Source: Yuukianura sp. NJ FZ-2021
Taxonomy: Eukaryota
Assembly (NCBI GenBank): GCA_046563655.1
Contig: CM102287.1
Coordinates: 1 to 64,000, forward strand
Length of the DNA: 64,000 nucleotides
Direction of reading: 5' to 3'
Within the stretch, counting starts at the first letter, position 1; each line of letters starts with the position of its first letter. The position numbers and the translations under genes are program-made. This document shows, piece by piece, positions 15,656 to 40,251 of this stretch. The notes below the pieces were generated by a model that did not search any database, was not told the origin of the DNA, and saw nothing but the letters and a program-made list of their open reading frames with translations.

Positions 15656-16640
15656 GTTTATACCAAAATGACAGTTAGATTTATGCACTTGTTGCATAGT
15701 GGAGTTGGGCTAAAATATAATTCCAGATTATTGTTGAACACCAGTTATTCAGGTGTGCTTTATTGGAAGTGCAGGGTGGTTGTACGACATAAAAAATTAT
15801 TTCCTAAAAATTCTAATCAAGATAACAAATAATGCGGAATGTTTCATTTTGATTTAGACAATGTAATAATGGGATTTCCCCTGAAGTTCCATTGCCCTCT
15901 GAGTCATTGTGATTCATAGTGTCAAAATGAGTACTGGTTGGTATCTGTAGTGAGGACGAGCTTGTCATTTCACCGGCACTTCTCCTTTGTGCTCAAAGAT
16001 GAAGGCTGACAACAAGTGGTTCACCGTGTGTAATAGTCGTTGATGCACTACGACAAAGTGGACCGGTATTAGATGCGTTCCATGAAGATGGTTAGAAGCG
16101 ATATCAAGGCATAAATTCCATTTTTCAGTATGTTTAAAACTTCGTTGTATAGTTCCCACATTAGTTTATACCAAAATGACAGTTAGGTTTATGCACTTGT
16201 TGCATAGTGGAGTTGGGCTAAAATATAATTCCAGATTATTGTTGAACACCAGTTATTCAGTTGTGCTTTATTGGAAGTGCAAGGTGGTAGTATGACATAA
16301 AAAATTATTTCCTAAAAATTCTAATCAAGATAACAAATAATGCGGAATGTTTCATTTTGATTTAGACATTGTAATAATGGGATTTCCCCTGAAGTTCCAT
16401 TGCCGTCTGAGTCATTGTGATTCATAGTGTCAAAATGAGTACTGGTTGGTATCTGTAGTGAGGACGAGCTTGTCATTTCACCGGCACTTCTCCTTTGTGC
16501 TCAAAGATGAAGGCTGACAACAAGTGGTTCACCGTGTGTAATAGTCGTTGATGCACTACGACAAAGTGGACCGGTATTAGATGCGTTCCATGAAGATGGT
16601 TAGAAGCGATAACAAGGCATAAATATCATTTTTCAGTATG

Positions 16641-16897
16641 AGTTAGTTATAAGTGTTTATCAATAGAAAATAGGTCAAGCCCCCCCTCCCCACATCCCCA
16701 GCCCCTGTCCATTCATCCCGGTCATGGGTGACGAAGTGCAACAGAGAAGAAAAAAAAAAAAATAAATAAATAAAAATACATTGTAAATTATTAAATTAAA
16801 TTTATTACTTTTTAAAATTAACCATTTTTAATTGTCTATAATTTATTTAAAAAAAAAAAAATAAAAAAAATATACAATTCCCGAGATTCGAACCCGC
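16641..16897 (+). repeat. Left terminal inverted repeat (near-perfect ~110 bp, degenerate to ~257 bp)
   Basis: Reverse complement of the right end through ...GACGAAGTGCAACAGAGAAGAAAAA; patchy matches continue through TTTTTAATTGTCTAT to CCGAGATTCGAAC. Confidence 0.93.
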
Positions 16898-16956
16898 ATT
16901 TTTTTTTCTCAGGTTTAATTTGAACTGGTGGCTCATACCAATGAACCACATTGGCG
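16870..16956 (-). promoter_or_regulatory. tRNA-like Pol III type-2 promoter element (A box + B box), pointing toward the left end
   Basis: Minus strand reads TGGTTCATTGGTATGAGC ... GCGGGTTCGAATCTCGG followed by T runs; there is no canonical anticodon arm. Confidence 0.45.
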
Positions 16957-17233
16957 TAGCTTACAAATCATAAGAAAAGAATAGCATGACATACAATTAC
17001 TTCATTTACAGCAAAAGTAAAAAAGTACAAGTGATATTCTCTTGATGGCGCTGGGGATGTATTTTTAGTTGCACGGGGATGAAATTCAACTGAGTTTGTT
17101 TCTTCTAAACTTTCGGGGTGAAAAAAATGTTCTGTTTTTAATTCGTCAGCTGAGTTTGTTTCTGTCTAAACTTGACGTGCAACAAAAAGCAACGCAAAAA
17201 TCAAACATTTCCGAGATTTACATTGAAAAAAAA

Positions 17234-18428
17234 ATGGAGGTAAGTCAATCAAATTTGGAACAATTTGGTTCTAAATTTAATTTACTTATTTTATTTATTT
17301 CAGAACGAATTGGACAACGTGGTCGTAGATCCGGATTTTAACCCAGAAGGGGTTGTCGTCGAGGGGGTAATTTTTGTTCTACTATTTTTTTGAAAATTTT
17401 TCTAAAATTCTAATACAAGTTTAAATTAATTTAGCCCCGGTTGTACAACCTCCGCACGACACCTGTACCTTCGCAACCAATTGTCCAATTTCCGATTCCC
17501 TCTCAACGATTTGACAATTGGGGGGAATTAAAGAAACGGAAAGAAACGCTACCACGATTCCACGATATGAACATCACGAACGTGTTCTGGGTACGACGCG
17601 TCGGTGACGGGCCGGCAGCGGAAAATCAAAAACAGCGAGACTACCAATGGCAAGCCTATGTTGGCTTTGGCACAGAAGAAAATGAGTTTGAGCCGTAAGA
17701 AAATTTTGAAATCAACAATTACTTTTGTAGTTATTTTAAATTACCAAAACAACTTTTTTTTCTCTGTATAGTTACCATTGGGTACTTATAACTGAGAAAA
17801 CGCCGCCGCATGTGAAAGCCATGGTGACGACGGTGCGAAAAAGGATGCGAGGAATGATGGACGCAATAAGCTTTTTTCCGCCTCCGGTGAGGCCAGCACG
17901 ACTAGACCAGCTCGGTCTCCGGCCCAGGATTGAGGTAAGCTCTTTTTTTCATGGAAAATAACTTTGATTTAATTTTATTTGTATTAATTTTAGCCTTCAA
18001 GACCAGACTACTACATTTGTTACAAATGTCGCTGCACTTTTCCTGGTCTCGGATATTTAAGGAGGCACAACTGCTATCGGACGGAGGTCAACGGAATTGG
18101 CACTCAAACGACGCAACTAGTGCATAGCATCGCAACTCAGACTCCACCATCTGAGGAATGTCTCCCAGGACCTTCACGAGGAGCAATTCTTCCCGACTTT
18201 TCCACACTAAAATGTCAAAAGTGTGAAATGAAATTTTCAAAAAAGGCAAACTTCAAGCGTCATTATTTTACGATGCACCTTACAATGGGCATCAATAACG
18301 AAATGCACTACAAACACGAGTGCCGCTGTAAATACAAAACAAATCGATACGACAACTATATGCGCCACGTTTTGTCATGTAACATTGTATTAGGTGTTAG
18401 GTGCATGATTGAACTCGACCTCTTTTAG
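17234..18428 (+). CDS. Spliced zinc-finger protein with possible chromo-like N-terminal region and two TQT motifs (5 exons)
   Basis: GT-AG introns 17240-17303, 17367-17434, 17695-17771 and 17935-17993 join one open frame. Fingers: CYKC..HNC, CQKC..F..KANFKRHYFTMH, CRC..YMRHVLSC. Motifs GIGTQT and SIATQT. Confidence 0.75.
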
Positions 18429-18654
18429 CCAATTTTTTGTTAAATAAATTTTGTTGGTTTAAATTTAATTTTGTGCTACTTTATTTTAAAATGCTTTGGC
18501 AACTTTCGGAGTTGCCTTTGAGATGATTCTTAACAAGGTTTGGGACTTTGGGTGGATCACCCAGGATGGGTGGTCTGTTTGGACGTTGGACACACCCTCC
18601 TAATCTTTTCACTCCAAGCATGTGAGAAAAGCTTTCACGAAGATAGAAAGCATC

Positions 18655-18778
18655 AGATGGGGATTTGTGTGAGGAGCAGGCGATCATTTTTGCTCCTCAC
18701 GGCAGCTTATGTAAGAAGGAGAGGAAGCTGAGAGATGGGGATTTGTGTGAGGAGCAGCCGAACATTTTTGCTCCTCAT
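18655..18778. repeat. Two ~46-bp direct repeats, each containing a 10-bp hairpin
   Basis: AGATGGGGATTTGT-GTGAGGAGCA-N12-TGCTCCTCA(C/T) at 18655-18700 and 18733-18778. Confidence 0.85.
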
Positions 18779-19040
18779 GGGGCCTTATGAGAGAAACTTC
18801 TCAGTGCCACTATGTAGTGTGGGTGGTGGTGTTCTGAAAGAGGAGGATTTTTTTGTTTGAAAAAAAAATACTTGAGAAAGATACTCAATGTTCCAAAGAC
18901 GCCAGGCTTTGACAGTGGTAAGCTTTATTTTCAAAAGAGATGGCGCAGAGGAAGGATTTTTTGACAAACGGAGCTACAGTATATTTTAAAAAGAAAAGTA
19001 AAATTGTAGCAAAAAAAAAAGATTTTCACTCTATTCGGAT

Positions 19041-19842
19041 TCAAAGGGAGCTTTCACGGGCGGTAAAAGTTTCCAGTTGAAGCGCAGCTGCACCCCTCTG
19101 GAGTTGGTCACTCAGAGGTCTTGGCCTGCGGCAACGCTTCAATACACGAACGGCCATATATGAACCGATGATCACCAGTAGCCCCACTAGAATTAAAATG
19201 TGAGTCATGAGTACAAATTTGTTTTGAAATGATTACCTAAAACTTACCAATAATCAGAATCAACAAAAGAGTCAAGTCCAAACCTCCCTCTTGAACTGCC
19301 GGCTGCGGGATTACCGTGGTTGTTGGTTCGGTTGTCGGTGAGGTGGGTGGTGTCGTAGGGGCCTCAGTTGTGGTGATGTTCCTAATATTCCTGCAGGCCT
19401 CCCAGTTTGGCGGGTTTACGTTAAAAACGTATCCTCGGGCTGTCCCCTCCAGTCCACAAAACGTTTTACGTCGCCCCTCGTTGAACTCGAAAAATGAGCA
19501 CGCCTTAAGGACACACTCCACGCATTTCCACAATGCATTACACTTTGCTAAAAATGAATTATAAATTAAAATATGCAAATTGAAATTTTACAAATTAAAA
19601 ATCTTTTACTTACACATAATTGCAACTTCTTTGACTTTAGAGTTCTTGGAGTACGAAATACAGACTGATGAGCAATCTCATGCAAAATTTATTATTAGAG
19701 CTAAAATGAGTTCTCTTAAGTTGATGAACTAGTAATTGATCTGGATTTGAAACATCTCATACGATCAAATAGCAAGGATAATAAAAACTCCAGCGTCTAG
19801 ACAATTCCTTTCAGATGAGTTTATTCGAAGTTACCAAACCAT
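19041..19842 (-). CDS. Membrane protein 1: Cys-rich (PSI-like) domain, Thr/Pro mucin-like stalk, TM helix, tail ending ESSL; 5' end uncertain
   Basis: Introns 19548-19613 and 19187-19247 give ...KCNALWKCVECVLKACSF...TTTEAPTTPPTSPTTEPTTT...LTLLLILIIVGLLVIIGSYMAV-RVLKRCRR...TARESSL*. A signal-peptide-like exon (TLEFLLSLLF) lies near 19763-19796. Confidence 0.65.
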
Positions 19843-19845
19843 TTG

Positions 19846-22800
19846 TCATCCGCCTAACTTATTTTTCAAATCATAGTCAATAATAGATTCGATTCGCTTG
19901 TCACCAAATGGAAGGGAAATTGTGTTGGACACAAAAAATCTTGACGCGTTAATGCTTGATGTTAGGGATGCTCGGCTACTTGTGATCATCAGCATCTGGT
20001 CATCCAAAATTTTCACCTGAGAAACTTTGACTTTTTTCAGGGCTTCTCCATGCTCCACGACACGTTTGAAATCTGCATGCCTAAGTTCCTTGGCCTGTTT
20101 TTTTGGAATTCCACCGGCTTTCAGAATGTCGGATTCTCCAAACGCAGAGTCAATTTCCATTGAATATTGAGAACAGGAAGTAGAGTAAAATTCTTTGATC
20201 CCTTCAGCTTGAATCTTCAAGAGACCCGGGATTCCTGCCCGAGAAGCATCATAGAGTTCGGACGTCGGCTGTAGATTGGAAAAGTCGAAGCGATTCGAAA
20301 GTCGTTTCAGTCCAGCAACGTATTCGGCTCTGCTACAGTGGATCTCGGCCACAATACTGTCTGTATGAGTCATCACATGATGGCACCTGTCTCCAAACTC
20401 ACGTTTCAATCCGTCATAATAGTGTGAGTACAGCATAATTTTTGCATTTGAAAGTATAGCGAGTCCAATCATGCGCAGATTGTAATCTGTGATTTCCCCC
20501 TTGGAAAAGTCAAATAGCGCCGTATCTTCGTCCAAAATCTCGAACGACTTGAAAGTTGCCTTGGCTAGTTCTGCTTTCGCTTCTACCGAAGATCGGATGG
20601 CTTTTGACCGCATGTAATCTGAATTGTTTTTTAACATTTGTCCATAGAGCGAGTTGTTTAAAAGCTTCCGAAGTTGCTTTTGGAGGGGAAACTTTGCTTG
20701 ATTTCTTGCAATGACATTACTAGCAGCAAAATTTGCGAAAATTGGAGACTCCCTAAATCGAACTGCTGAATAGTACTTGGTAGGCATGGCGCCATGATCA
20801 ATCATGAACTTGAGGTATTTCCCATAGTAGACTTGTCGTTGTTTTTTGTAGAGGGTCAGCAACACTCGTTCCTGTTCAATTTTTGTTTTTTCTCTGAAAC
20901 TTTCTTGTTGGAATGGAGATAGCTCTTGAGTAGAAACCTTAAGTCGCTGTTGTGGGAAAGGAAAGTCTGAGAGAAAGTTTTTCACTTCCTCACTTTGATA
21001 TTCAAGGTCGACTTCAAAGAGGTAACCCCAACCGTCATCAAAATCTGGTTTGTTGAAATCAAATTTTATAATCTCCTCCGCGGTGAGTTTTTTGTAGCCT
21101 CCGCACGGTAGGTTACCCAAGAAGCACTTACTGTAGCACGAGTTAATGTCAGCATAAAAAATTATTTTTTGCGGAAGGTTATGGTCATAGTTGGAGAGCT
21201 GTTCATTGTTGGCTATAGACTTTAACTTTGTGACTTGAATGACAGGCCCATAGATTCCTTTCGTGATGAGTTTTGAAATTTCTTCATCCGTGACGGCTTG
21301 AATTTCACATTTCTCCATTAGGAACGCGGCTTCCCTTGAAAATGAAGAAATGCTCCAAAAAGAAGCCAAATCCAAATGAAACTCTTTCCAATATTCGTTT
21401 CGAATCGCTTGGAAAACGTCTGCGGTAAGAGCAGTGACACTATTTAGCTTGTGGCGGACTATGTTTTCCAGTGAAAGTTGTTTCCATGAATCGGGAACGT
21501 GGAATTCACTTGAACATTCTAGACTCTTGTAGGCAACTGATTTGTTTTCGAAAAAATCATCAACGGAAGAAAACTCAGGAAAAATCTCGTCTACTGCACT
21601 GTGTGTAGGGTCAGGAGAAAGTTGATTACCGAAAATTTGCTGGAAAATTGGAAATCCAATTCCGGACATCTTTAACTCTTCCACAAGTTCAGCGAGCGGC
21701 GAGTCTGGACGAAAATTTTGAAAGTCTATAAATTTGAGTCCAAAGTGAAGGTCATAGTTTTGCTTGCAAATAGTTTTTCTCAAGTCCAAACCAATTGTGT
21801 TTCCTTCTTTTCTTCGAATTGGGGTAGCAATTCCGTGTTCATCTTTTAGGCATTTTAGCAGAAGATTAAACTCATTCTTCTCACAAAATGCAATCGCTGT
21901 GATACGGTTCTTTGGTTTTATTTCCAAGTTGCAGTTTGTGCAACAGGTCTGCATCTTCTCCCCTGTGAAATGATCATGGTGATAAGCTCTCAGCACTAAA
22001 TCGTGGTTAAATTGCTTTCCACAAATTTCACAGTTTGTTGCTTTTATAAAAAGCCCTTCCTGTTCCTCAGTCATAGGGAGCATCTTGTTTGTGAATTTAA
22101 TTTCGTCGAGCTTCATTTTCGCCATTTCCATTGCAGTTTTAAAAAAAATGTCCACACAATCTTTTCCAATGTAAGAGTGCCGGTCTATGTGTCCCGTTTC
22201 GCATACACTCAGTAGACTGAAGCCAACTGGAATTTTTTGAGTAACACTGATACATTCTTGTCCTATGGTCATCGGAGTTTGTACAGAGACGTAGAAGAAC
22301 TTGTAGAAAAAAATGTAAGGAGCTTTCAGGAGGGCATCAAACTTTCGAAATTTCACAATATCATTCCTAGGCACTTTTACTTTTACAGAGTTTTCACCGC
22401 AAGTATGGTTTACGGAAGACCAAGTCCTAGAATCAAAACGTTTTTGACAAACAGGACAAAATTGATGCCGGAAATGATTATGTTTTCCGAGGAGTGCCGA
22501 AATGTCCCGAATGCAAACAAAGTGATGTTCTTCGCGTTCCGGATGCTTGATTAGTAGGAGATTGACATGATTCGCTCTTTCAGTTTGTGGTGCCCTCCAT
22601 AGAACAATTTCTGGCCCCTGATTTCCGTACACGGTGATGCTAAGGTCTGGGAATTTCTCTTCGACCAAGTCAATGTCCAAAAGAGAAACGTCCGGGTGAG
22701 GGAGAAAGCTCAAATCCATTCTCTCCAAGAAGGCTTCATAACTTGCTGTTTTCTCCAAAATTGCTCTCTCAACTTTAGACTTTTGATGATCTTTGAGCCC

Positions 22801-23711
22801 AAGACAGTGACGCTTCATTCTTCCCAGCTCCAAAATTTCATCTTCATATAGTGCACATAGCACGCTCAATTGGAAGCAGTTGGAATTGGTATTTATCGAC
22901 AAAAGTCCACGTCTGCGAGCCAATTCCTTTGGAATGGGAATGTAACCCCGCCCCCGAACAACTGGATTCCATTGACCGACACCAATGTGGAGAGAACGTA
23001 GCCGCAGAATCTGCCAATTGCTTCCGTTTTCTAGGTATAAGTTGAGGGCGTTGATGATGTATACACAAGAGTTTGTTACCACCCTTGAAATGAAATCGGG
23101 ATGAGAGAGAGGCATGAAGGGAGCTCCGATGGCGTCTCCGAGGTGAATGACATTGTGTGTGACCTCAATCATGTCAGCAATCAAAGTAAAGTTGACTTTG
23201 ACTCCACTGTACTGCCCGATCACTGATTTCAGTAACTTTCTAATAGGAAAGTCGAGGTTTTCAAAAACAGAAAGTACTTGACATTCGGTGGGTGGTTCAA
23301 CGGGTGCAGAAAATAACTTCAAAGTCCCCTTAAGAGCATGGCGGATTTCTTTGAAAGGACGGATATCCACCATAGCTAGGTCATCGGTTGGTCTACTACC
23401 CATGCCTCTCTGAGGACAGATTGGACGGTGAAGAGGAGCCTCGTCAAAGTACCCTCCACAAGAATTACAGCTATGTACCTGCATCAAAAGTGGAATTTTC
23501 ACATCTTTCCTCATGCTTGTGCTAAGTGTAACGTCTTACAGTTTCCACGTGGATGGCCATGGCCTTGTAGGTCGTGCATTTGAAAGTGCAAAGTAACGTA
23601 GGGCTCTGATATCCGCAACTAAACTGCAAATAAAAATTTTTGTGAAACAACAATAATAAGACGGCTTAGAATTTTTTTTACCTCGGCTGCCCGTTTATTC
23701 AGAAAACTCAT
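19846..23711 (-). CDS. pPolB: Protein-primed family B DNA polymerase with N-terminal zinc finger, TP/vOTU-like region and endonuclease VII-like insert
   Basis: 1222-aa ORF with YADINSCY, KLLNNSLYG and THTDS; GSNW...YIPIP...NSNCF...HF N-terminal block; CEIC...HHDHFTGE...CTNCN. Probable 5' exons via introns 23624-23681 and 23479-23539 complete a C2H2 finger (C..C..HVET|VH). Confidence 0.93.
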
Positions 23712-23757
23712 TTTATTAAATTATTAAACAATTTTTTCCAATTAGCTAGCTTCAGAC

Positions 23758-24429
23758 TCAGACTTCGGACTGACGGGGGGATCGACGAAGGGCGACGTTA
23801 AATACACTGCCGTATGTCCCGCGCGATTGGCTACCATGACATTGACCTCCCAAGCTCCACCCCAAAACGTTTGCCACGACAGCAGCAAAGGTCATGCATG
23901 ACAAGGCTGTGGATGAACAACACGATTAATTGGGGACCCATCTAAAAGGAATACGACGTCTTACCCAGAATAGTCCGTAAAATCGGAAGTTGGGAGGGTG
24001 CTTCAAATTTTTGTTGCTTTTTGCAGCCGGTCATTGCTCTCAATAGGTTTGAAATATCTTTCAGTGCCGTTCCGTTGCTGATGTTATCAGCAAACAAAGT
24101 TCCATAAACGATTCCATCCGTGTCTTGCTGATGCGAATCGCACTTGGCCGTGACATTTGTGCTGCCCATTATGAGGGTTCCTGGGAGGTTCCGCGTCATG
24201 TCATTTGTGCAAAAAAAGTTTTGAACCGAATTGAAATGCCATCCTTTGATGAACACATGACCGCCTGAGATGCAACTCCTGCAGCGTTCTTGGAGACTTT
24301 TGTCTTCTCCAGTTTTCAAAAAGAAAGGAATCACTCACCTTCTAAAATGAAGGAAATAGTAGCTTACTTACCTTGACACGATGACGCGGTGATTAGAAAG
24401 CACAACAGGACAAGATTCGAGAGAGCCAT
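23758..24429 (-). CDS. Membrane protein 2: signal peptide, Cys-containing glycosylated ectodomain, TM helix, tail ending QSEV
   Basis: MALSNLVLLCFLITASSCQ | intron ~24308-24371 | ORF body (CRSC; sequons NVT, NIS, NGT) | intron 23907-23964 | ILRTILALSCMTFAAVVANVLGWSL...RRSPRQSEV*. Confidence 0.68.
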
Positions 24430-24522
24430 TACACTACTTGTCGACTCGAATAGAGTAAAATGAATACTGAAGCGTTTGTCAGGCAGTTGCTGAATTTTTA
24501 TGTTTTATTTACATTTGAAAAA

Positions 24523-25082
24523 TTAGTTTTGCCAATCACATAAAGAATAGCATGTCTGAGATGACCCTGAGTGACCCCTTTTCGTACAGATGCCTAAACT
24601 ACTATAAAAATCAAGTACAATTTTTTCGTTTTTGTTTAAATTTTTAGGACTAAATATACGTAAAGAACTACACAAATCTTTTCCGCTGCTCAACTCTTGA
24701 AAGACTTTTAAGCAGAACATGCCGCACGTTGCACTGTCATCCTTTTGTAGTTTTTTAGTGTTCCATTCCGAGATTGTAGTGCATGGGCCGTAAGGAAGAG
24801 ATAGGTTGTAATCGCTAGGCAATTTCCCAAAACTGTCAAAAAAAACCAACCGGCCTTGCTCCAAGTGCGCCCAGAGAACCCAATGGATTCCTAAATTAAA
24901 ACAAAAAATAAATCTCTTGCGTTTCCATATTTTTTTTACCTCAAGCATTTACCTGGAGAAGAAGTTAAGCCGGTATTTTGTATACAACAGAATGGAGGGC
25001 GTGGGTTTAGAAGGCTAATTCCATCATTAGAACTAACAAAAGTTCGAATTTTCGGGTCAGAGCACTCTTTTATACACGCCAT
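24523..25082 (-). CDS. Adenain-like (adenovirus C5/Ulp1-fold) maturation cysteine protease, 2 exons
   Basis: IQNT...G|IHWV...FFDSFG...LQ..DSATCGMFC gives the H-D-Q-C catalytic set; intron 24891-24952. Confidence 0.9.
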
Positions 25083-25110
25083 CGCTTCCTCCAGTTCCGC
25101 CCGTTCATCC

Positions 25111-26412
25111 TCAAGTTTTAAGAACTTGCGCGTTTCTGTTTTTGTCAATTGTTAATACGTTTTGAAAAGTTCCCAGCACAATCAACTCGACTGGCTCGTT
25201 CAGGGCTTCACCAAAGACTGCAGTTACACGGACGGGTCCTTCGCGAGCAGGAAGGAGGTCATTGTTGGATACAGCAGCTTCAGAAAGTTGGAAAAGGTAG
25301 ACGGCGTTGCCAAGTTTGAAATTCTCGCGGGAAATTCCGTTTCCAAAAGAACCGAGTGTATCAAATAGAGCCACGAATGGTTCCATGTACAGGTTTGCAG
25401 CGTAATTACAGACAAGTTCTCTGTAAAATGGAACAAATTCTTCGGTTCTGACGCTGATTGAAGTTATGCCAAAGTCGGCAAAATTCTGTGCGCTATTCTT
25501 GTAGTTTCCTCGAAACGCTTTTGATTTAACCAAGGCAATTGCAACAATCGTAGGCATCCTGCGAAGAAAAAGTCGATCCGAGGTGAAGCTGACAGTTCCG
25601 GAAGCGATTGTGTTTCTTTCAATTTCAATTTCTCGGTAACTGTAGATTGCTTTTTTTCCATGGTTGAATAGTTGCTGATGGTTAGAGTAGATTCGAGGGC
25701 TAATTGTATGTGCCTTGAGATGAAAGACGGCATCTTCAATGGAATACGTATACTTTGTGTCGGTGGGCGTGTCCAAGCAGAAAGGGGCTGAGTTTTTAGT
25801 CAGTGTAAGTTCAATTTTTAGTCCCGAAGGAATCCATCGTTGGAGTTCACACAATGAACATGAAATTTTTCCAAACAAATCAAAGGTCTTTGACCCGGCA
25901 CACATTGCTTTTCGTTTCGTATATCCAGTGTTTGTTGCGTCAAAGACATCCTGTTTGGAATCTGGGTAGTAGGCAATTGATGACAGGAGGCTCGCTTTGA
26001 GTTCTTGACTGTAGCCCAGGAGATGCGACAGAATTCCTCTGTAACTGTAACTTTGTGGGTACTCACTCATTTGGACGCCACCTACCGTGACCGTGCAGGA
26101 GTCAAAGATTGTGTAGAACATCATGTTGCTAATAGCAACGTCGGCAGTATCCGGAAGCGTTTCTCCACTTGCAGTGAGAACTTTACATTTTAGGTATAGG
26201 TATGAAGATGAGAAATCCAAGTAAACGTTTGGCGGAAATTGAAACTGCCCAATGTTGAATGTGATTTGAGGATTTTCTTTTACAGTATTCACAGGAATAA
26301 TCTTGATGAACTCTGTTTGCTGCACACTAATGTCAGTCGGGGGAACTGAAAATAGATCGAGTTGGGAAACGTAGTTGGGCTTTGTACCCGGAAGCGTGTT
26401 TACTGAAGCCAT
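25111..26412 (-). CDS. Major capsid protein (double jelly-roll, Polinton PY-type), 433 aa, intronless
   Basis: N-terminal SQLDLFSVPPTDISV, YLDFSSSYLYLKCKV, YSYRG and ...IVLGTFQNVLTIDKNR patterns typical of Polinton MCP; size and position next to the protease. Confidence 0.88.
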   Translation of the reverse strand: MASVNTLPGTKPNYVSQLDLFSVPPTDISVQQTEFIKIIPVNTVKENPQITFNIGQFQFPPNVYLDFSSSYLYLKCKVLTASGETLPDTADVAISNMMFYTIFDSCTVTVGGVQMSEYPQSYSYRGILSHLLGYSQELKASLLSSIAYYPDSKQDVFDATNTGYTKRKAMCAGSKTFDLFGKISCSLCELQRWIPSGLKIELTLTKNSAPFCLDTPTDTKYTYSIEDAVFHLKAHTISPRIYSNHQQLFNHGKKAIYSYREIEIERNTIASGTVSFTSDRLFLRRMPTIVAIALVKSKAFRGNYKNSAQNFADFGITSISVRTEEFVPFYRELVCNYAANLYMEPFVALFDTLGSFGNGISRENFKLGNAVYLFQLSEAAVSNNDLLPAREGPVRVTAVFGEALNEPVELIVLGTFQNVLTIDKNRNAQVLKT

Positions 26413-26473
26413 CTTGAGACTGACTACCGACTAACGCAGGACAGAAGACTGAGGAATCTTGTAAATGGTTCTT

Positions 26474-27997: not shown

Positions 27998-27998
27998 T

Positions 27999-29155: not shown

Positions 29156-29286
29156 GCTAAGAACCTACAAAAGAAATTACACAAGACAGTGTATGACGGC
29201 GACTGCCGTCTGAGTATGACTTTTTACCAAATTTATTTAAAAAACGACCGAATTTTCGAGAATTATTTAAGCTTAAGACTCAGGGG

Positions 29287-29750: not shown

Positions 29751-30051
29751 TTTGAAAATGATGGCGCTTACTACGGAATGATGGCTTTTCCAAACTCCTG
29801 TCGCTTTATATACCCTATCGAACTGAGTGGAAACGTTTTGAAAAAATGTTGACTAGAAATTTCCAAAATTTTCAGTCCATTGAAAATTCCGCTCTGTTGA
29901 ACTCAAAAGGCCCTACGGCATACTAAATGCGATTACTCATGCACACAAAAAAAAAGCCAAGGAAATATATTCTTGTGCACTTTCCTCCTTTGTATTCAGT
30001 CGCACTTTCCTCATCCCCTCCTCAAGTCACAAGCAAAATATTCAGAAAGCA

Positions 30052-30930
30052 ATGGAAAACACAGAGCCAGCTAACAACCAGTTTCCTAGCCATGAAGAAT
30101 TGCCAGAAGAAAGAGATTGGACAGAAGTATTCAAAGTGAAAATCAGTCATCCGGACACTGTGGATTGCACTTTAATTACGACAGGCCCTAAGATTTTCAA
30201 AGTACTACGCATTGAACAGCACGGCACGGCAACCACTTTGGATTTCAAAGTGATACCAAAACTCATCGGAAAGCTTTTTCAACTTTATCTTCAGAACGGT
30301 GGGCGAGCGAGCGAGCTGCCGTATGTAACACTTTATCATGAGAGAGGTTCAACTTGCCTTATAATTCGACACAAAGACTCCAAGGAGGTTAGAAGCTGGC
30401 CGCAGAATTCTGAAAACGGTCGTAAAACTGATCCAGACCCAATCCGCTGCCCACAAGGAATGTATCCCGCGCCAACTATCGTGTATCAGACGTCTCAAAT
30501 GGACGGGTTTTGGCCGAGGCAGGCTGAATCTCGTGATAGCAGTACCGATTGGGCACAAGTAGACAAATTGCGCATCAGTCAGCCGGACGCTTGGGATTGT
30601 TCTCTAATTACGGAAGATCTTAAGGTCTCGAAGGTCATCCGCATCGAACAGCACGGCGCGGCAGCCACCGTGGATTTCCAAATGATTCCGAGCCTAATCG
30701 GCAAATTGTTTCAACTCTTTCTTGGAAGCGGCGGGAGAGTAACAGAACTGCCGAGAGTAAAACTTTATCACCAGAAAGGCACTACATACCTCGTGATTCG
30801 GGACAATGACTCTGTGGACAATTGGAACTGGCCAACTGACTTGGAAACGGGTCCTAGGATCACGCCTCTAGGAAAATTAATCGAGTATCAGACATATCGA
30901 ATCGAAGGAGACGAGGTATTCGTGGCATGA
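30052..30930 (+). CDS. Hypothetical 292-aa protein made of two diverged ~100-aa repeats
   Basis: DWTEVFKVKISHPD..RIEQHG..LIGKLFQL..GGR..ELP..LYH vs DWAQVDKLRISQPD..RIEQHG..LIGKLFQL..GGR..ELP..LYH; synonymous divergence between copies supports coding. Confidence 0.85.
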   Translation: MENTEPANNQFPSHEELPEERDWTEVFKVKISHPDTVDCTLITTGPKIFKVLRIEQHGTATTLDFKVIPKLIGKLFQLYLQNGGRASELPYVTLYHERGSTCLIIRHKDSKEVRSWPQNSENGRKTDPDPIRCPQGMYPAPTIVYQTSQMDGFWPRQAESRDSSTDWAQVDKLRISQPDAWDCSLITEDLKVSKVIRIEQHGAAATVDFQMIPSLIGKLFQLFLGSGGRVTELPRVKLYHQKGTTYLVIRDNDSVDNWNWPTDLETGPRITPLGKLIEYQTYRIEGDEVFVA

Positions 30931-31149
30931 TTGGGCAAAAACTGAGCCACAGAGACGCCTCACTAGCGTTAGAAACGTATATTGAATAGCATTACTCCAC
31001 TAGCATTTGCATAAAAGAATTTTGTCTTTGTGAAATTTATTTGAATTCTGGTGAAAAATTTGTATTATTTAAAATTTGATAAAAAACTTTCAATTTTTCC
31101 GAAATCCTTTTTCCAAGCCTTGTTCAGTTTACAGAACACACCAAAAGTT

Positions 31150-31585
31150 GCTCACAAAAAAAAAAGAAAAGAAAGAAATCCATTCATTGCCATGCTCCGT
31201 TGAACTCGAAAATTTGTTACCAAATTGCAAGAAAAAGAAGTGCTCAAGAATCAAAACTCAAAATTTAACAATTTAAATAAATTTAAACTTCATTTCTTTT
31301 GTCTTAGAATTCTTTTTAAAAGGTTAAAAAGTTTTCAAAAAAAAACAACACATTTTTTTTAAAATTCAATTTAAAAAAAAAAGAAAAGAAAGAAATCCAT
31401 TCATTGTCATGCTCCGTTGAACTCAAAAATTTGTTACCAAATTACAAGAAAAAGAAGTGCTCAATAATCAAAACTCAAAAGTTAATAATTTAACTAAATT
31501 TAAATTTCATTTCTTTTGGCTTAGATTTTTTTTTAAAATGTCAAAAATTTTTCAAAGAAAAAACTGATTTTTTTGTTAAAAATTC
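31150..31585. repeat. Two diverged ~218-bp AT-rich direct repeats between convergent genes
   Basis: AAGAAAAGAAAGAAATCCATTCATTG(C/T)CATGCTCCGTTGAACTC...AATCAAAACTCAAAA at ~31163 and ~31381. Confidence 0.85.
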
Positions 31586-31789
31586 AACTAATCTTCCCTA
31601 GCCTGAATTTTTTAAAAACAAAGCAAAATGCAGTTGGTTCCAGTTCGCTGCACTCCACATACTACTCTGCCAAATTGTAAATACCAAAAAAATGCAAAAG
31701 AAATAAATAAATAAAAAAGAAAGAAACACAAGACATTTCAAAATCCATTTTTTATTTCTTTGTCTTTTTTTTAGCCTAACCGGAAGAAG

Positions 31790-32198
31790 TTAACGACGTA
31801 TCCTTTGTCGTAGATCCTCGTCACTTGCATTGTATATAACTGAAAAGACAAAAAAAATTACTATTTTAAATTGAGTTCGGTTTAAATAATTAATCAATTG
31901 TTGGCTTACTCTTCTCGATCAGCTTCATCTGCGCAAACCGGTGCATCTCGCGGTAGTGCAGAAATTCCTCCATTGCACCCGGCTCCTCTGGCTTCAAATA
32001 GTAGTTTGGAATCTCGCGGCGTCTCGCCCAGAAGTGGTGCCAAGCGGCACGTAAACAATCGTAGCGGAAAAAGGCCTCCAATGTTAGGCGCCGACGCCAG
32101 TTCCCGCCAGTCCTCTGGTCATCACAGATGACCTCCTGAGGGCACGAGCAGCCGTCCCAATCGTCGTGTTCACAAGGCCGCGACACAATACCTCCCAT
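31790..32198 (-). CDS. Small hypothetical protein with N-myristoylation-like start (MGGIVS), probably 2 exons
   Basis: ORF body 31890-32198; donor GTAAGC near 31909 and acceptor TTTCAG near 31840 give ...IEKIIYNASDEDLRQRIRR*; TATATAAA upstream near 32262-32269. Confidence 0.6.
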
Positions 32199-32352
32199 GG
32201 TAATGAAATGCAGTTTAAGGAGAAGAAAGTAATCTGACAAAAGACGGCCAATTCTCCAGAGTTTATATACTACCAGAAAATCATCTCAACTCCAATTAGA
32301 ACTGAGAAAAACACTAGCTCACAGCTAGAGATATTTATTCGAGCATAAATTC

Positions 32353-33271
32353 TCATAAATCTTCAGGGTCAACCTTAGCAACAATGTTTTGCATTGTTTT
32401 TACAAAACCGTCAATATCTCCCCGACAAAACGTTAACTTCGGCCCAAAATAGCCGTCAAACTTCGAGTTGTCGCTCGGGGAATTGAGATAGAAAAAATAT
32501 CTGTCCCTGCGGACGTTGATGAAGCGCATTCTAAAGCGCATAGTTTCGCTATACCAAGTATCGTCATGAGTCCAGAATGAGAGCTCTTTGGGCTCAATCA
32601 GGGTTCCCGGCTCGTACTTGAATAAGGGAGCTCCTGCCTTGACAGACTCGTCAATCTCGTCCAAGGTAGATTTTATTTGTTCCAGGATGACACCAACTTC
32701 TCGAAACAAGATTCCAAGGATCGTTGGGCTTGCGTTCGAGTTGAGCTTCTGGATGTAAATCTTCATGGCTGCAAAAGAAAAAAAATTTTGTGAAAAATTA
32801 CAATTGAAGCTTATTCATATTTTAGGTCAAACGTACTCTGAGAATACGGGTCAAATCCGAGCCGAGCGTAGAAAGTAGTTGATGTTCCGAACTTCTCCAC
32901 AAGTCCAGATTCAGAAAAGAATGCTTGGGCATTCTTCGGTCCAAGCTCCAGTTGCTTTGCTTTCGTGACGTAGCTCATGGGAATTCCGGAGAAAGCCTCC
33001 GTAAAAACAAACGGAGTCTGCGGCGGTCTTCCTTCCACGACGTCTTGACCCGGGTTAGCTACACCGGTCAACAAGTCAATCGCCCTCCGACTTCTTACAA
33101 GTGAAGTGGCTTCATCAACGTTATCAAAGTCCAAACGTCTTTTAAACGCTCCGACCTTTTGCGTTGGGGCTTCTGAAATTATTTTTAAAATGATTAAATT
33201 TTAAAAAAAATAGAAGAAAAAGTATTTTTAAAAAAACTGCAGTTCAAAAATTGTTACTCACCGCTTCCCAT
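32353..33271 (-). CDS. Hypothetical spliced protein with KRRLDF motif; possible PC4/PUR-like ssDNA-binding repeats
   Basis: MGS|EAPTQKVGAFKRRLDF...FDPYSQ|TMKIYIQ... joins ORFs 33254-33487, 32811-33134 and 32353-32766 by two GT-AG introns. The start may be at 33487. The fold guess is weak. Confidence 0.6.
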
Positions 33272-33858
33272 TGTCGAATTTCTTTGATATTGGCCCTTTT
33301 GAAATTGTAAAAGTTGAGTACTGATGACGGGATCACAAATACTGTCCCTTTTAAGGGAAAATTTCAACCCGATTGACCCCTGAGTTTCCCGAAGCAACCA
33401 ATCCGATGTCGTTTCAATTTCCCCCAGTTCCTCCCCCGACGCTTCTCCGCTCCGCTGACGATGAAATTTTCGACTCCGTTGACCCATGACTTTGGTGAAA
33501 GCAAACCGTCAACGTCTTAGCGTCACCGGAGATATGCTTCAATGCCGTTCTGGTGCAGGTCAGTTGTGGCCTGCACCGGATGTTCTAGAAGTTGAACTTT
33601 TGTTTGGACCCAAGCCGTTCCGGGTGACCGATTTAGGCGCGCGTCACGGCTCGCTAATTCCCGGCCACTGTCCTCGACGTTGTTCTAGGCTACAGTTCAA
33701 GAACTCCAGCCAAAACTGATTTCCAGTCTGATAAGCTCCGTTCATCGTCTTTTGCCCCTGTTTGACCTAGGGGGCAGTCCAACGGAAAAAAAAACATCGA
33801 TATAAAACACGGACTGAAAATCGTTTTTAGGGCCGAAAAGTTTGTTAAACCCCTCAGT

Positions 33859-34263
33859 ATGAATTCATCAACACATCATTGCTGTAAATGTGTAAAAATA
33901 TTTAGTCCAATCAGAATCAAGGTAATCAAAGACAGGCTTACTAAATCGCGCTGCCGAGACATTGAGAAAATTGTTCGGGAAGACTACTCACAGTGCACGA
34001 ACTGTGACATTGTGTGGGACGGATTTGCGCAACACGTCTGCCCGTCGACAAAGCCTTCGAAGCCCTTGAGTATTGTGGAGATTTTGTGCAGTATTCAGCG
34101 TTGGAGCAGCAAAGAGCCATTTACGTTTGGCGGATTTAGATTCAAAATTGGAAGAGTCACCGCATTGGACGCCGCTTACATTCAAGACGAAATTTTGAAA
34201 AACTTTAACGTTTTTTACTCTTCACGTCTGCCCGTAAAGTCCATCAAGCGTTGCAGACTGTAA
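33859..34263 (+). CDS. Hypothetical 134-aa protein with a Cys/His zinc-binding-like motif
   Basis: CTNCDIVWDGFAQHVC motif; TATAAA at ~33801 and TCAGT immediately before the ATG; abuts the helicase start. Confidence 0.6.
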   Translation: MNSSTHHCCKCVKIFSPIRIKVIKDRLTKSRCRDIEKIVREDYSQCTNCDIVWDGFAQHVCPSTKPSKPLSIVEILCSIQRWSSKEPFTFGGFRFKIGRVTALDAAYIQDEILKNFNVFYSSRLPVKSIKRCRL

Positions 34264-34265
34264 AG

Positions 34266-36176
34266 ATGGATAAAAGTTCACTCAAACGAAAGCTGGAGAA
34301 AGGAGAAAGCGGAGGAAACGTTGTACGCAAGTTGGTTCCGAGTAATCCATTAACGTTTTTAGAATACTGCAAAACTCAGCCCGTCAACAGAGTATTTCCG
34401 GTCGTTGAACTAGAGCAGCTCAATTCCAAGCAGCGTCAAACTGCAAAACTGGTGACTGAAGCCCTCTCTGCTCGTAACCAGGAATTCATTCTGTGCCACG
34501 GCGCGGCTGGGACAGGCAAGCCAACAGATATTTCTTTAGGAATTTCATCTGAAATTATTTTTTTTTTGAAATTTAGGAAAAAGCTTCATAATACACTATT
34601 TAAGAGGCTATTTTGAAAAAAAAAAGATTCGTTTCCGTGTCTTTGCATTTACTGGTGCAGCTGCATTCAACGCGGGAGGAATAACTGTTCATAGCGGCCT
34701 CTCATTAAGTCTAGGTCATCGAAAGCATGACCCGGAAAAATATGTCGAATTTCCAAGGGAGAGACTGAAGGGAGTACGACTTTTAATAATTGACGAAGTT
34801 TTTATGCTCGGGGTTGGTCTCCTGGGATACATGGAGCGAAGACTTCGGGCAATTTTCAGGACACAAGAACCATTTGGAGGTCTAACCGTGTTGGCCATGG
34901 GTGACCTGGCACAGTAAGCTACACTTTTAAATGTGGAAACCTCATAATAATGATGTTTGATGTTTAAGGCTAAGTCCAGTGGCGGATAGACCATTATACT
35001 ACAAGTCTGCGCATGCCGAAGGCTTGTGCTTGGATGGGATCAAGGCGTACGCGCATTTTAACAAATGCATAATACTGACAGAAATTATGCGGCAGGACGA
35101 GTCTCAAGCCAAGTTGAAAGAAATTTTGTCGCGCGTACGTTGCGGAAAACTAGAAGAACAAGACATTGAAGCGCTGCAATTGAGGTCTTTGGAACAACTT
35201 TCTTCAGTCCTGACTGCGGAAGAGCTTTCACTTTTCCTCTCCGCTCCTGTTCTCTTTGCAGAAAATCACAACGTGAATAGTTACAATGAGTAAGTCTCTA
35301 TAAGATACTGAATTTATGCATACTATTAAAAATGTAAAAAATAGAAAACGAATTTCGGAGCTGGGCGTTGACATTACGGAGGTGGACGCCATCGACATGC
35401 GAGATGAGACAAAGACTGGCGACAAATTGAAGCTAGCGGTTGGAGCCCGCTGCATGCTAACCAAGAATCTTTTTGTCGCAGCAGGTATACCATAGTAACC
35501 ATACTAATTTTAAAAAGACTAATTTCTGATTTTTCTAACAGGACTTTACAACGGAGCACTTGTCACAGTCACTCAGATTTCAACCGAAGTAGACGAAAAC
35601 GGAGTTCCAAGTTTCGTTTTCGTCCGTCCCGACACATATTTTGGCGTTCCATACCCACTCAGGAGAGATATTCCTATAGTTCCGCTCGTGATGCCATACT
35701 ATGACAAGTATGCGGGAAGAACTTACCAAAGAAAGTTATTCCCATTGCAACTGGCTTGGGGAATGACATGTCACAAGGCACAGGTGAATTACCTCAAGAC
35801 TATGCTAAAAACATTTGATCATTTGTTTTTTCTTTATAGGGCAAAACTTGCAAACGGGTAGTGGTGGGGAATCCAGCACCCGGTGACACATCAACAATGT
35901 TTACTAGTCAGGCGCCTCAGTTGGTTTATGTAGCAATGAGTAAGAAACAATTTTTTGCATTTTTTTTTCATATTTTTCAAGCTTAATAATGAAATTTAAA
36001 ATTTAGGTCGTGTCACAACTCTGGACGGATTAATGTTCCAGCACCCATTCAGTCCAAATCTGGTCGTGGGACATAGGAGCCTAGCTATTCGGCAATGGCA
36101 GGAGGAATTACAGCGCCTAGAAGCCATGGAAGCCAACACCAACACGAATTTCAATTTAATTTTAGATTTAAAATAA
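34266..36176 (+). CDS. pif1: PIF1-family SF1B DNA helicase, 7 exons
   Basis: GAAGTG|KS, AFTGAAAFNAGGITVHS, LLIIDEVFM, PFGG..GDLAQ|LSPV, LTEIMRQ, FPLQLAWGMTCHKAQ|G, YVAMS|RV. Introns approx. 34516-34576 (GC-AG), 34914-34968, 35290-35344, 35485-35541, 35783-35840, 35939-36006. Confidence 0.92.
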
Positions 36177-36273
36177 ATAGTTTTATGGTAGCATTGTGAA
36201 TTTTGGCTTTACTAGTAAAAGTATTCATAGATTTCCATTCAACTGTATTCAGTTTGCAAGAATTTTTAACAAA

Positions 36274-36357
36274 GTACAAGTGGTTCAGTGGTATGAGCGT
36301 GTTCCGAAAATTTTTGTTGCCATGGGTTCAAATCTCGTGTGGTTCAACTTTTTTTTT
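36274..36357 (+). promoter_or_regulatory. Second tRNA-like Pol III A/B-box element
   Basis: TGGTTCAGTGGTATGAGC (D-arm-like GTTC/GAGC stem) ... ATGGG-TTCAAAT-CTCGT (T-arm-like), then a T9 run; an internal T5 is also present. Confidence 0.45.
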
Positions 36358-36655
36358 ATTCCAAATACTATGTTTTCTTATTGTTGAAACAATTCGTTGT
36401 TTAAAAAAAATTATTTTTTATTTTTTTGAAAATTTTTAATATAATTGAAAAGATAAAACAGCATAATTAACTTAAAAACTAAATTCAAGTTAAAATTTGC
36501 CCATATGTACTCATCTCAGGGGAGTGGGTACAAAGGTGAATGCAGGTGTGCATGTGCAGCCGGTTGTAAACAAAAGCACGTGAAAGTGAAAGTTGTAAAA
36601 ACTCCCACTTCCTCGTGCTTCTGTTTTGTGGTGTGTTGCCGGAGGATTCCAAGAA

Positions 36656-38094
36656 ATGGTAAGTTTTTATAATTAAACTTAACCTAATTAAACTAAATTA
36701 AACTAAAAACTAAAAATTATTTATTAAAATTTGTTTTTAGGAAAATTTTAGAATGTTGTTGGGCCACTTGGCAGTCGTTGTCCTGTTTGGAGCCACCGGG
36801 TTTGGGGATCCCCCCAAATGTGACCTGAACTGGCCCTGTGTTCAGTGTCTGGGGGAGCGATGCGCTTGGTCGAGGCGTGAAGACGGGGTGGGGGTATGCC
36901 ACCCCATTGGGGAGACCCCCAATGGGCGCTACATCTTCTCGTGGCTGCCCCCTGACACCCTCAAGTGTCCCCAGCCTGACCAGGCACGAGAAGGGGTCCC
37001 CGCGGGGGAGTGGGAGACTGCTGCAATCGTTTTGGCAGCGTGGTTGGCACGTAAGTTTTTTTTTATAAAATTGGAACGATACAGAGTAAGGTTTGTTGAC
37101 TTTGATTTTCTTTAACAGGTTGAGTAATACCTCATGTTTTTTTAATTTTGCAAAAATAGTGTCTTTCATTTCATGATATCGTAGTCATAACAATACAGCC
37201 GATTTTTTTTTTAAATTTTGCATACGAATTGGTACCATTTTTTTTTGTATTTGTACAAAAATTTGCACCAATTTCCGTTTTTTTTCATTTTTTTTTTGTC
37301 AACGAGGAAGGTAGTACTCAACCTGTTAAAGAAAATACAGACAAATCACTAATTCATGATTTGTCTGTTTCAGTAGTGACAACATGTGTCGTGGGTGCAG
37401 GGATTCGGTGGTTGATTGGGTGGGTTCGGGAGTGGAGGGAGCCCCACCAACACCGGGGATTTAGGCCCCGCCCACCAACACCACATCCAGCACCGCCTGC
37501 TGCTCCACGACGTGCCACCACTGCACCACCACAGATGCCCCACCGTCCAGCTCCACCAACTCCTGCAGCAGCAGCGACTGGCTTGGCCCCACCACCGTGG
37601 GGTGAGTACCCCAATCTGACCAGCCCCACGATGGTGCAGCATCTGGAGCCGTTACGGCAGTCGGAGAGGCTGGCTGCCAAGCGGCAGCATCCGGGATATT
37701 CCCGGCCAAGGCAAGGTTTGTTTTTGTTTTTATTAAGTAGCGAAAGCTACTTTATTCAGAATCTGCAATGCAATTTTATTTGCAAGTAAACAGAATGAGA
37801 GTGGAGAGTAGAGTGGAGAGTGCGGACGTAGAAGTAAGCACCTCTCTCCATTGTCATTCTGTTTGCTTGCAAAAAAAAACTGCATTGCAGATTTTTGCAA
37901 CTTTTTTTTAATCAAATTTTGTTTTTATTTCAGGTACCGGTACTAGGTACCAAGCACCCAGCACCAGCACCAATCCATTTCTTCGCGGGAACATGGTTTC
38001 GTTCCCGTTTGCGGTTACAAATCCGCAGTATTCAGCACTGGATCTAAATCCTACGGGATTAGTTTCCAGTGCTGAAGAAACGTCATTTGTTTAA
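36656..38094 (+). CDS. Membrane protein 3: signal peptide, Cys-rich (PSI-like) domain, TM helix, Pro-rich tail with YPNL, NPF, NPQY and terminal TSFV (4 exons)
   Basis: Introns 36659-36740, 37051-37373 and 37716-37933 join M|ENFRMLLGHLAVVVLFGATG..KCDLNWPCVQCLGERCAW..AAIVLAAWLA|LVTTCVVGAGIRWLIGWV..PRQ|GTGTRYQAPSTSTNPFLRG..TNPQYSAL..AEETSFV*. Confidence 0.75.
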
Positions 38095-38421
38095 TGGCAA
38101 ATGGGAATGAACCATGTTCATTAGGTTAGGTTTCTTTTTCCAGTTATTTTCAATTTCAAATTCAATGTTGTTCAAAAGAAGAGCTTAGCCAAATAAAGTA
38201 CAAGGCATAACATTGAATTTGAAACTGAAAATAGCTGGAAAACGATAGTTAGTTTAAAAATTTTGCACAGTTTTCCAAAAATTTTCACTTTTTTGCAAAA
38301 ATAAAATTATTCGCGGCCCACCATTTACTTGTAGTTGTTTTTTTATTGGCTTTCCTCAAGTTAGCCACCACAGTCTTGTGGGATAGGAGAAGAGTAAAAA
38401 ACAAGGGGGATGGGAATTGGC

Positions 38422-38688
38422 GCGAGTTCGAATCTCGGAAATATTTTTTTTTATGTTTTTTTTTAAATAAATAAATCATAGACAATTAAAAATAATTAAT
38501 TTAAAATCAATAATACATTTCTTTTTTTTAATTTATATTTTTAGAAACTAATTACAATTTTATACTTTTTATTTTTCTTCTCTGTTGCACTTCGTCACCC
38601 ACCACTGACCGGGGTGAATGGACAGGGGCTGGGGATGTGGGGAGGGGGGCTTGACCTATTTTCTATTGATAAACACTTATAACTAACT
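38422..38688 (-). repeat. Right terminal inverted repeat
   Basis: Reverse complement of 16641-16897 with a few mismatches/indels in the outer 110 bp. Confidence 0.93.
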
Positions 38689-40251
38689 AGTATGTTTAAA
38701 ACTTCGTTGTATAGTTCCCACATTAGTTTATACCAAAATGACAGTTAGGTTTATGCACTTGTTGCATAGTGGAGTTGGGCTAAAATATAATTCCAGATTA
38801 TTGTTGAACACCAGTTATTCAGTTGTGCTTTATTGGAAGTGCAAGGTGGTAGTATGACATAAAAAATTATTTCCTAAAAATTCTAATCAAGATAACAAAT
38901 AATGCGGAATGTTTCATTTTGATTTAGACATTGTAATAATGGGATTTCCCCTGAAGTTCCATTGCCGTCTGAGTCATTGTGATTCATAGTGTCAAAATGA
39001 GTACTGGTTGGTATCTGTAGTGAGGACGAGCTTGTCATTTCACCGGCACTTCTCCTTTGTGCTCAAAGATGAAGGCTGACAACAAGTGGTTCACCGTGTG
39101 TAATAGTCGTTGATGCACTACGACAAAGTGGACCGGTATTAGATGCGTTCCATGAAGATGGTTAGAAGCGATAACAAGGCATAAATTCCATTTTTCAGTA
39201 TGTTTAAAACTTCGTTGTATAGTTCCCACATTAGTTTATACCAAAATGACAGTTAGGTTTATGCACTTGTTGCATAGTAGAGTTGGGCTAAAATATAATT
39301 CCAGATTATTGTTGAACACCAGTTATTCAGTTGTGCTTTATTGGAAGTGCAAGGTGGTAGTATGACATAAAAGATTATTTCCTAAAAATTCTAATCAAGA
39401 TAACAAATAATGCGGAATGTTTCATTTTGATTTAGACATTGTAATAATGGGATTTCCCTGAAGTTCCATTGCCGTCTGAGTCATTGTGATTCATAGTGTC
39501 AAAATGAGTACTGGTTGGTATCTGTAGTGAGGACGAGCTTGTCATTTCACCGGCACTTCTCCTTTGTGCTCAAAGATGAAGGCTGACAACAAGTGGTTCA
39601 CCGTGTGTAATAGTCGTTGATGCACTACGACAAAGTGGACCGGTATTAGATGCGTTCCATGAAGATGGTTAGAAGCGATAACAAGGCATAAATTCCATTT
39701 TTCAGTATGTTTAAAACTTCGTTGTATAGTTCCCACATTAGTTTATACCAAAATGACAGTTAGGTTTATGCACTTGTTGCATAGTGGAGTTGGGCTAAAA
39801 TATAATTCCAGATTATTGTTGAACACCAGTTATTCAGTTGTGCTTTATTGGAAGTGCAAGGTGGTAGTATGACATAAAAAATTATTTCCTAAAAATTCTA
39901 ATCAAGATAACAAATAATGCGGAATGTTTCATTTTGATTTAGACATTGTAATAATGGGATTTCCCCTGAAGTTCCATTGCCGTCTGAGTCATTGTGATTC
40001 ATAGTGTCAAAATGAGTACTGGTTGGTATCTGTAGTGAGGACGAGCTTGTCATTTCACGGCACTTCTCCTTTGTGCTCAAAGATGAAGGCTGACAAAAAG
40101 TGGTTCACCGTGTGTAATAGTCGTTGATGCACTACGACAAAGTGAACCGGTATTAGATGCGTTCCATGAAGATGGTTAGAAGCGATAACAAGGCATAAAT
40201 TCCATTTTTCAGTAGGTTTAAAACTTCGTTGTATAGTTCCCACATTAGTTT

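Follow-up and report, generated by a model that had tools for sequence, protein, structure and literature searches.

How does a virus-like transposon of 22 kb come to lie inside a homogeneous satellite array, and in what condition did it arrive there? The question is raised by the first 64,000 nucleotides of contig CM102287.1 in the Yuukianura sp. NJ FZ-2021 assembly (GCA_046563655.1), a stretch referred to here as the window. The middle of the window is occupied by an element of 22,048 bp with AG...CT ends (positions 16641-38688), which is a Maverick/Polinton of the adintovirus-like kind. The account that we favor, with a probability of about 0.7, is that of a single young Maverick/Polinton insertion in one 508-bp satellite monomer, of a copy in which no packaging ATPase is recognizable, and of a passive position in the satellite. 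The element is a well-preserved and fairly ordinary Maverick with a non-standard gene set (the packaging ATPase is undetected, a PIF1-like helicase is present) and with intron-bearing genes. The coordinates of all features are collected in Table 1.

Insertion site and host satellite

The element is bounded by terminal inverted repeats and by a perfect 6-bp target-site duplication, AGTATG, as expected of a Polinton/Maverick. Its two ends match perfectly over 39 bp and, in a gapped alignment, with one mismatch and two indels over the first ~114 bp; they can be aligned up to 257 bp on the left and 267 bp on the right. Removal of the element and one hexamer in silico yields 508 bp, centered on the join, that are 99.2% identical to both the left and the right neighboring monomers without a single gap over 508 bp. 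The next monomer to the right is 99.6% identical, and more distant monomers are 96-98.8% identical (BLAST, 89 rows). Uninterrupted monomers have the AGTATG hexamer once, and the window contains one copy of the element. These results agree with the preliminary description of the locus, which had reported a perfect 6-bp duplication with AG...CT ends, a satellite that resumes in exact register and an element that array turnover has not duplicated.

Both inverted ends also carry a motif resembling a tRNA T-arm or B-box, GTTCGAATCT (16880-16897 and 38421-38440), which at the right end is followed by runs of T toward the terminus. An ARAGORN scan found no tRNA.

Both flanks consist of the 508-bp satellite (best self-shift of 508, with scores of 0.77 on the left and 0.72 on the right), which was missed by Tandem Repeats Finder (TRF) at its period limit of 500. 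The same monomer subtype, defined by three sequence markers, had been proposed to lie on both sides of the element. The three markers occur together in 11 of the 67 full-length monomers, while two of them are found in 2 monomers, one in 10 and none in 44. All 11 triple-marker monomers directly adjoin the element, at 15879-16640 and 38695-46409, and are set among the 44 marker-free monomers, which confirms the shared subtype.

The element is hosted by a sub-block of the array whose satellite spans 14433-16640 plus 38695-50307. Monomers are 99-99.6% identical inside this sub-block vs 96-98.8% outside it, making it the youngest part of the array. It also contains ten variant monomers of 723 bp, each with the same 215-bp sequence that is unrelated to the monomer. 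Identity is 99.6% or more for nine of the ten copies of this sequence and 96.6% for the tenth. The 215-bp sequence inserted earlier and was then multiplied along with the array.

Age of the insertion and its family

The difference between the two insertions gives their order. The older 215-bp insert was copied ten times in the host sub-block and the Maverick is there only once, which places the arrival of the Maverick after the most recent round of local amplification. Measured against array turnover, the insertion is young; the perfect duplication and the length of the open frames are in keeping with this, and the earlier proposal of a recent insertion is upheld on all three grounds. Transposons that are co-amplified within satellite arrays behave like the 215-bp insert, which is present in ten copies with its monomer, and the Maverick differs from them in not being co-amplified. 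The locus offers a clean, datable case of the entry of a virus-like transposon into satellite repeats, in which the older co-amplified insert serves as an internal reference for turnover.

Two other explanations bear on this order of events. In one, satellite reads were misjoined during assembly to an element from elsewhere. Junction-spanning reads were not seen in this data, and a match of 6 bp would by itself arise by chance once in 4096. A misjoin would not, however, duplicate 6 bp, supply inverted ends that match and leave an exact, gap-free monomer once the element is excised, and because all three occur together neither chance nor misassembly is a credible source of the arrangement; we give an artefact hardly any weight. 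In the other, the insertion is old and has stayed unchanged since this part of the array stopped turning over. Maverick ends provide no molecular clock, and the two ends diverge past the first ~114 bp, both of which would accommodate greater age. Yet the 3.7-kb PolB frame and five other genes are still open, the duplication is perfect, and the host sub-block, as the youngest part of the array, has amplified an earlier insert to ten near-identical copies. An old insertion is very unlikely on these grounds, and a recent one is preferred.

The family to which the element belongs was followed in contigs that match a 20-kb stretch of the window. The contigs come from three runs of one sample, which is probably the source (X1, X2 and X3), and from a fourth run labelled as organism B (X4). 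At 90-100% identity, the stretch is matched by 1393 contigs in X1, 1735 in X2 and 302 in X3. The X1 contigs divide into 570 at 99% identity or more, 520 at 95-99% and 303 at 90-95%; X2 and X3 are similar. Contig joints skip 17,063, 4,934, 2,706, 1,899 and 922 bp. The many variant contigs and the skipping joints mean that the family is multi-copy and has deletion derivatives. Among the 40 best-supported base differences (1135 more lie beyond these), 32 fall in 16956-18590, so the left arm of the window copy differs from the commoner variants. Loose contig ends at 16640 resemble ordinary uninterrupted monomers and are uninformative on an empty allele, and a 34-mer from the left end has no match among the metagenome contigs.

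X4, with its different organism label, has the satellite and two regions of the element, 23901-31149 and 33913-35910, at about 94-99.5% identity. These regions are the capsid-integrase module and the helicase region; 20402-23069, which belongs to PolB, is without cover at 90% likeness. The preliminary description had spoken of a still-active family. The family is multi-copy in the source sample; activity itself is plausible, though unproven.

Genes, introns and the packaging ATPase

The element encodes a DNA polymerase of family B (PolB) that is protein-primed, an integrase of the rve type, a putative protease resembling adenain, a capsid protein of the double jelly-roll kind, a penton protein and a PIF1-like helicase. 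Together with the hallmark ends and the 6-bp duplication, the PolB, integrase, capsid and penton genes establish the Polinton identity that had been claimed for it. Relatives were found in 34 IMG/VR loci, which were gathered via the PolB alignment and whose open reading frames (ORFs) were run against the element by tblastn; they match PolB, the protease, the capsid gene (1e-55) and the integrase.

The core of PolB is an open frame of 1222 amino acids at 19846-23514 on the minus strand. PF03175, the organellar/viral type B polymerase family, is carried by 6 of its 25 relatives and was not reached when the window protein itself was scanned against Pfam. In an alignment of 14 PolB sequences, the residues of the exonuclease and polymerase motifs are invariant and are present in the window protein, and the N-terminal part has a conserved Cys and a conserved His. 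Of these 14 sequences, three show PF03175 (best 3.1e-32) and 11 a zinc module resembling endonuclease VII. A search of PDB sequences with PolB returned only the endonuclease VII-like zinc module (1e7d, 9.1e-05, profile) and the phi29 polymerase (E 0.1). The polymerase is of the Polinton/Maverick type.

The structure model of the major capsid protein is similar to capsid proteins of an iridovirus (8hif, 1.6e-14), mavirus (6g44, 4.4e-14) and Sputnik (3j26). Among viral entries it is closest to a Maverick-like protein of a Cotesia bracovirus (23% identity, E 2.4e-21); adintovirus and MELD virus entries come next. The penton model matches the mavirus penton (6g41, 1.3e-07), the Sputnik penton and adenovirus penton bases, so that both the double jelly-roll capsid protein and the penton of a Polinton/Maverick are in place. 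The protease is matched at 24673-24891 (9e-09) by ORFs of relatives that themselves have no Pfam match, and a His/Asp/Gln/Cys pattern is visible in its translation. Apart from the match in its second exon, the helicase shows weaker profile matches on exon 1 and the 2B domain.

The integrase was recognized by three co-linear tblastn pieces (29149-28784, 28728-28360 and 28330-28094; E 4.5e-26) from the IMG/VR locus L019. Its best relatives, at L019 and L026, carry PF00665, and the integrase is of the rve type, with a weak direct Pfam match (E 0.073). Past the final acceptor, its last 12 codons, which may encode a motif conserved in Maverick integrases, are shifted out of frame by one base, and the encoded protein stops three codons into the last exon. 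In a diverged variant contig of the same sample, a length difference of one base is present at 28036 (depth of 249.6/249.6 in X1 and 43.7/88.2 in X3). The penton ATG follows 31 bp after the integrase stop.

Several of these genes become continuous only when short introns are assumed. The introns were predicted by searching for short GT...AG intervals whose removal reopens a frame, and were then placed with the guidance of homologous segments. The frame-restoring intervals form a tight class of 56-62 nt. There are 16 predicted introns of 50-67 nt, 15 of them GT-AG and one GC-AG. They restore the frames of PolB (1248 amino acids in three exons), the integrase (300), the protease (165) and the helicase (519), and they also restore the order of homologous segments. 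The predicted GC-AG intron is the first in the helicase (34516-34576, with GC donor GCAAGC); it splits the P-loop, which is completed across the intron. The integrase and helicase were also considered as frame-broken pseudogenes, and this was rejected, as short introns account for the frame changes. Because the genes are read through 16 predicted short spliceosomal introns, their expression would need the host nucleus. The element adds to the evidence of ordinary short introns in arthropod Mavericks, which intron-blind gene finders will call decayed.

The A32/FtsK-HerA genome-packaging ATPase, another hallmark of Polintons/Mavericks, was not detected in the element. Six-frame P-loop searches found the P-loop of the helicase and no second one, even with a split allowed after GK. 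A profile was built from the ATPases of nine relatives, all confirmed as PF04665. With this profile, an ATPase ORF is recognized in 24 of the 34 related IMG/VR loci, and its best match among 915 six-frame fragments of the element (at least 15 amino acids each) has an E of 0.32. As a control, the profile was rebuilt minus three ATPases. In that search 9 of 24 held-out pieces of thirty residues were recovered at E<0.05, at least one per protein, and the best fragment of the element had an E of 0.41.

A deletion of the ATPase in this copy is plausible. The left arm carries a zinc-finger ORF that might be a remnant or an internal exon; it has no ATG before its first two fingers, that is, for its first half, and no longer relatives of it were found. 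The DNA that follows (18430-19230) is repeat-like and without a long frame, and other copies diverge from the window copy at 18688. As a separate observation, a pair of 63-nt direct repeats, 87% identical, is located (18655-18795) exactly at the point of divergence of contigs from other copies, which is marked by a loose end at 18688 and a contig joint that goes back from 18830 to 16667.

With no recognizable packaging ATPase and an integrase tail out of frame, the copy is probably unable to make filled virions alone. The preliminary description had called the element intact. This holds insofar as long frames are open once the introns are removed; it does not hold for the ATPase, the integrase tail or the zinc-finger ORF with no start for its first half, and the genes need splicing.

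In Starrett et al. 2021 (PMC8502044), animal Mavericks/Polintons are equated with adintoviruses. The element shares with them the size of 15-25 kb, the inverted ends and the 6-bp duplication, as well as the PF03175-related protein-primed PolB, the rve integrase, the double jelly-roll capsid protein and the penton, and probably the adenain-like protease. Nearly all adintovirus contigs >10 kb encode an FtsK/HerA ATPase according to that paper, whereas none is detectable here, and the short introns are a further difference. An S1H RecD/Pif1-like helicase is shown there only in maps of non-animal relatives, in contrast to its presence in this element. Alpha adintoviruses in that paper have an OTU domain fused to a PolB of the PF03175 type; in the PolB alignment made here, the N-terminal part shows the conserved Cys and His mentioned above. 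The vertebrate Mavericks of Barreat and Katzourakis 2021 (PMC8097293) resemble the element in having inverted ends that carry an AGT-type end motif, in their perfect 6-bp duplication and in a gene layout of two modules. In that work 'intact' Mavericks have eight conserved, intronless ORFs, all of them present. The element falls outside this definition because predicted introns interrupt at least four of its genes and no ATPase was detected.

Position in the satellite and remaining features

By analogy with the family, the element's protein-primed PolB would have made a linear double-stranded copy, which the rve-type integrase would have joined to the chromosome, cutting the target with a 6-bp stagger; repair of the staggered cut would then have duplicated AGTATG. 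The resulting copy could at most transpose, or would depend on fuller siblings of the multi-copy family.

A chromodomain is the known route of chromoviruses to heterochromatin, and the element, like the products of integrases steered in this way, sits in satellite DNA. At L019, L026 and nine further IMG/VR loci, the integrases have a Chromo domain at the C-terminus (PF00385, E about 1e-9 to 1e-10). Unlike them, the integrase of the element has none. No Chromo domain was found in the element, where the best fragment has an E of 0.34 vs E 1e-3 or better for the integrase ORFs of 11 relatives, and there is no room for one before the penton gene. The known chromodomain route to heterochromatin is closed to an integrase of this kind. 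Most likely, the satellite is a large, tolerant target in which insertions survive, and integration was not aimed at it.

The alternative, in which the family directs its integration to the 508-bp satellite or to heterochromatin, with an integrase that binds a host chromatin factor as one example of a guide, is unlikely. It would explain why the insertion lies in a homogeneous array and why a second, older insertion is found close to it in monomer phase. But the argument is based on one insertion, the chromodomain of the relatives is absent, and the target hexamer is at the same phase in 55 of the 67 full monomers (shifted by one base in 11 and substituted in one) with only one monomer occupied. 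No paper on Maverick targeting of satellites was found in the literature searched. Aimed integration, if true, would matter for centromere and heterochromatin biology; at present it concerns one insertion.

That the element is instead a fully intact, autonomous polintovirus, with a packaging ATPase so divergent, or so finely divided by introns, that it escapes detection, is unlikely. All other core genes are open after removal of short introns, and, with the P-loop of the helicase itself predicted to be split by an intron, motifs can hide. The search that found nothing in the element did, however, recover held-out ATPase pieces of only thirty residues, and a second P-loop is absent even when a split after GK is allowed for. 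The repeat-like stretch without a long frame downstream of the zinc-finger ORF and the divergence of other copies at 18688 also speak against an intact copy. A broader idea, which is at this stage a long shot, is that the whole lineage lost the packaging ATPase, kept the capsid genes, gained a PIF1-type helicase and host-type introns, and prefers satellite heterochromatin without a chromodomain. If true, the element would represent a Maverick part-way from virus to nucleus-bound, satellite-dwelling transposon. Siblings that confirm a lineage without a packaging motor and with a PIF1 helicase would bear on shifts between viral and transposon lifestyles.

Several points weigh against a young, ATPase-less copy in a passive position. 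A contig across 16640/16641 was not found among the pieces listed, in a stretch that included the left junction only. The form of the integrase tail found in the window is also read at 28036 by X2 (variant depth of 0/222.1) and by X4 of organism B (0/9.0), so that this form is multi-copy and, being so, may be tolerated rather than inactivating. All introns and gene models are predictions. The ATPase profile derives from distant relatives, whose PolB is ~24% identical, and a very divergent or replaced motor may be present. Passive accumulation is a default and not a finding. Finally, in monomer phase the 215-bp insert and the Maverick site are only ~37 bp apart, a proximity that is not significant with two events (a chance of roughly 1 in 6).

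Table 1. Features of the Maverick/Polinton element and its host satellite in the window (aa, amino acids; pLDDT, predicted local distance difference test)
Feature	Position	Strand	Remarks
Young satellite sub-block hosting the element	14433..50307	.	Marker-bearing 508-bp monomers and 723-bp variants with the 215-bp foreign insert
215-bp insert copies	14722-14931; from 15445, 40252, 41991, 43730, 44960, 46698, 47421, 48652, 49874 onward		
Left target-site duplication, AGTATG	16635..16640	.	Identical to 38689-38694
Left terminal inverted repeat	16641..16897	+	Starts AGTTAGTT
C2H2 zinc-finger open frame, possible remnant or internal exon	17994..18428	+	zf-C2H2_11 E 7.9e-05, below cut-off
Candidate small membrane protein, Thr/Pro-rich with hydrophobic helix	19041..19587	-	Two predicted exons (intron 19247-19187)
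PolB with zinc-finger leader and endonuclease VII-like insert	19846..23711	-	25 relatives, best E 3.3e-58
Putative adenain/Ulp1-like cysteine protease, 165 aa	24523..25082	-	Two predicted exons (intron 24952-24891); Peptidase_C48 E 0.0022, under Pfam cut-off
Major capsid protein, double jelly-roll, 433 aa	25111..26412	-	Structure model pLDDT 73.7
Lysine-rich 118-aa ORF, candidate DNA-binding core protein (by composition only)	26474..26830	-	Between capsid and penton genes
Penton (minor capsid) protein, 366 aa	26897..27997	-	99 relatives; model pLDDT 92.6
rve-type integrase, 300 aa	28028..29155	-	Five predicted exons (introns 28777-28720, 28362-28313, 28226-28167, 28095-28039)
Two-exon ORF	29287..29850	-	Predicted intron 29719-29661; no family match found
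292-aa ORF with internal duplication	30052..30930	+	Two ~90-aa copies of an unassigned domain
AT-rich 217-bp tandem repeat	31156..31581	.	1.9 copies, 89-92% identical; mid-element, GC drops to 0.28
PIF1-like superfamily 1 helicase, 519 aa	34266..36176	+	Seven predicted exons; PF05970 E 4e-12 on exon 2
Long near-perfect hairpin, right arm	37760..37895	.	-73.9 kcal/mol, z -13.3 vs shuffles
Second long hairpin, right arm	38130..38250	.	-45.5 kcal/mol, z -9.2 vs shuffles
Right terminal inverted repeat	38422..38688	-	Ends AACTAACT
Right target-site duplication, AGTATG	38689..38694	.	Identical to 16635-16640

The element contains further ORFs and repeats. No family match was found for the lysine-rich ORF or for the candidate small membrane protein, and the 292-aa ORF has no usable match in Pfam and the ESM Atlas. 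An inverted pair at 31311-31364 and 36400-36453 might have marked the termini of a nested element, but was rejected as an AT-rich, low-complexity chance match (74% complementary). The two hairpins of the right arm, which have no counterpart in the left arm, gave only sub-threshold matches in Rfam, and these resemble plant miRNA precursors.

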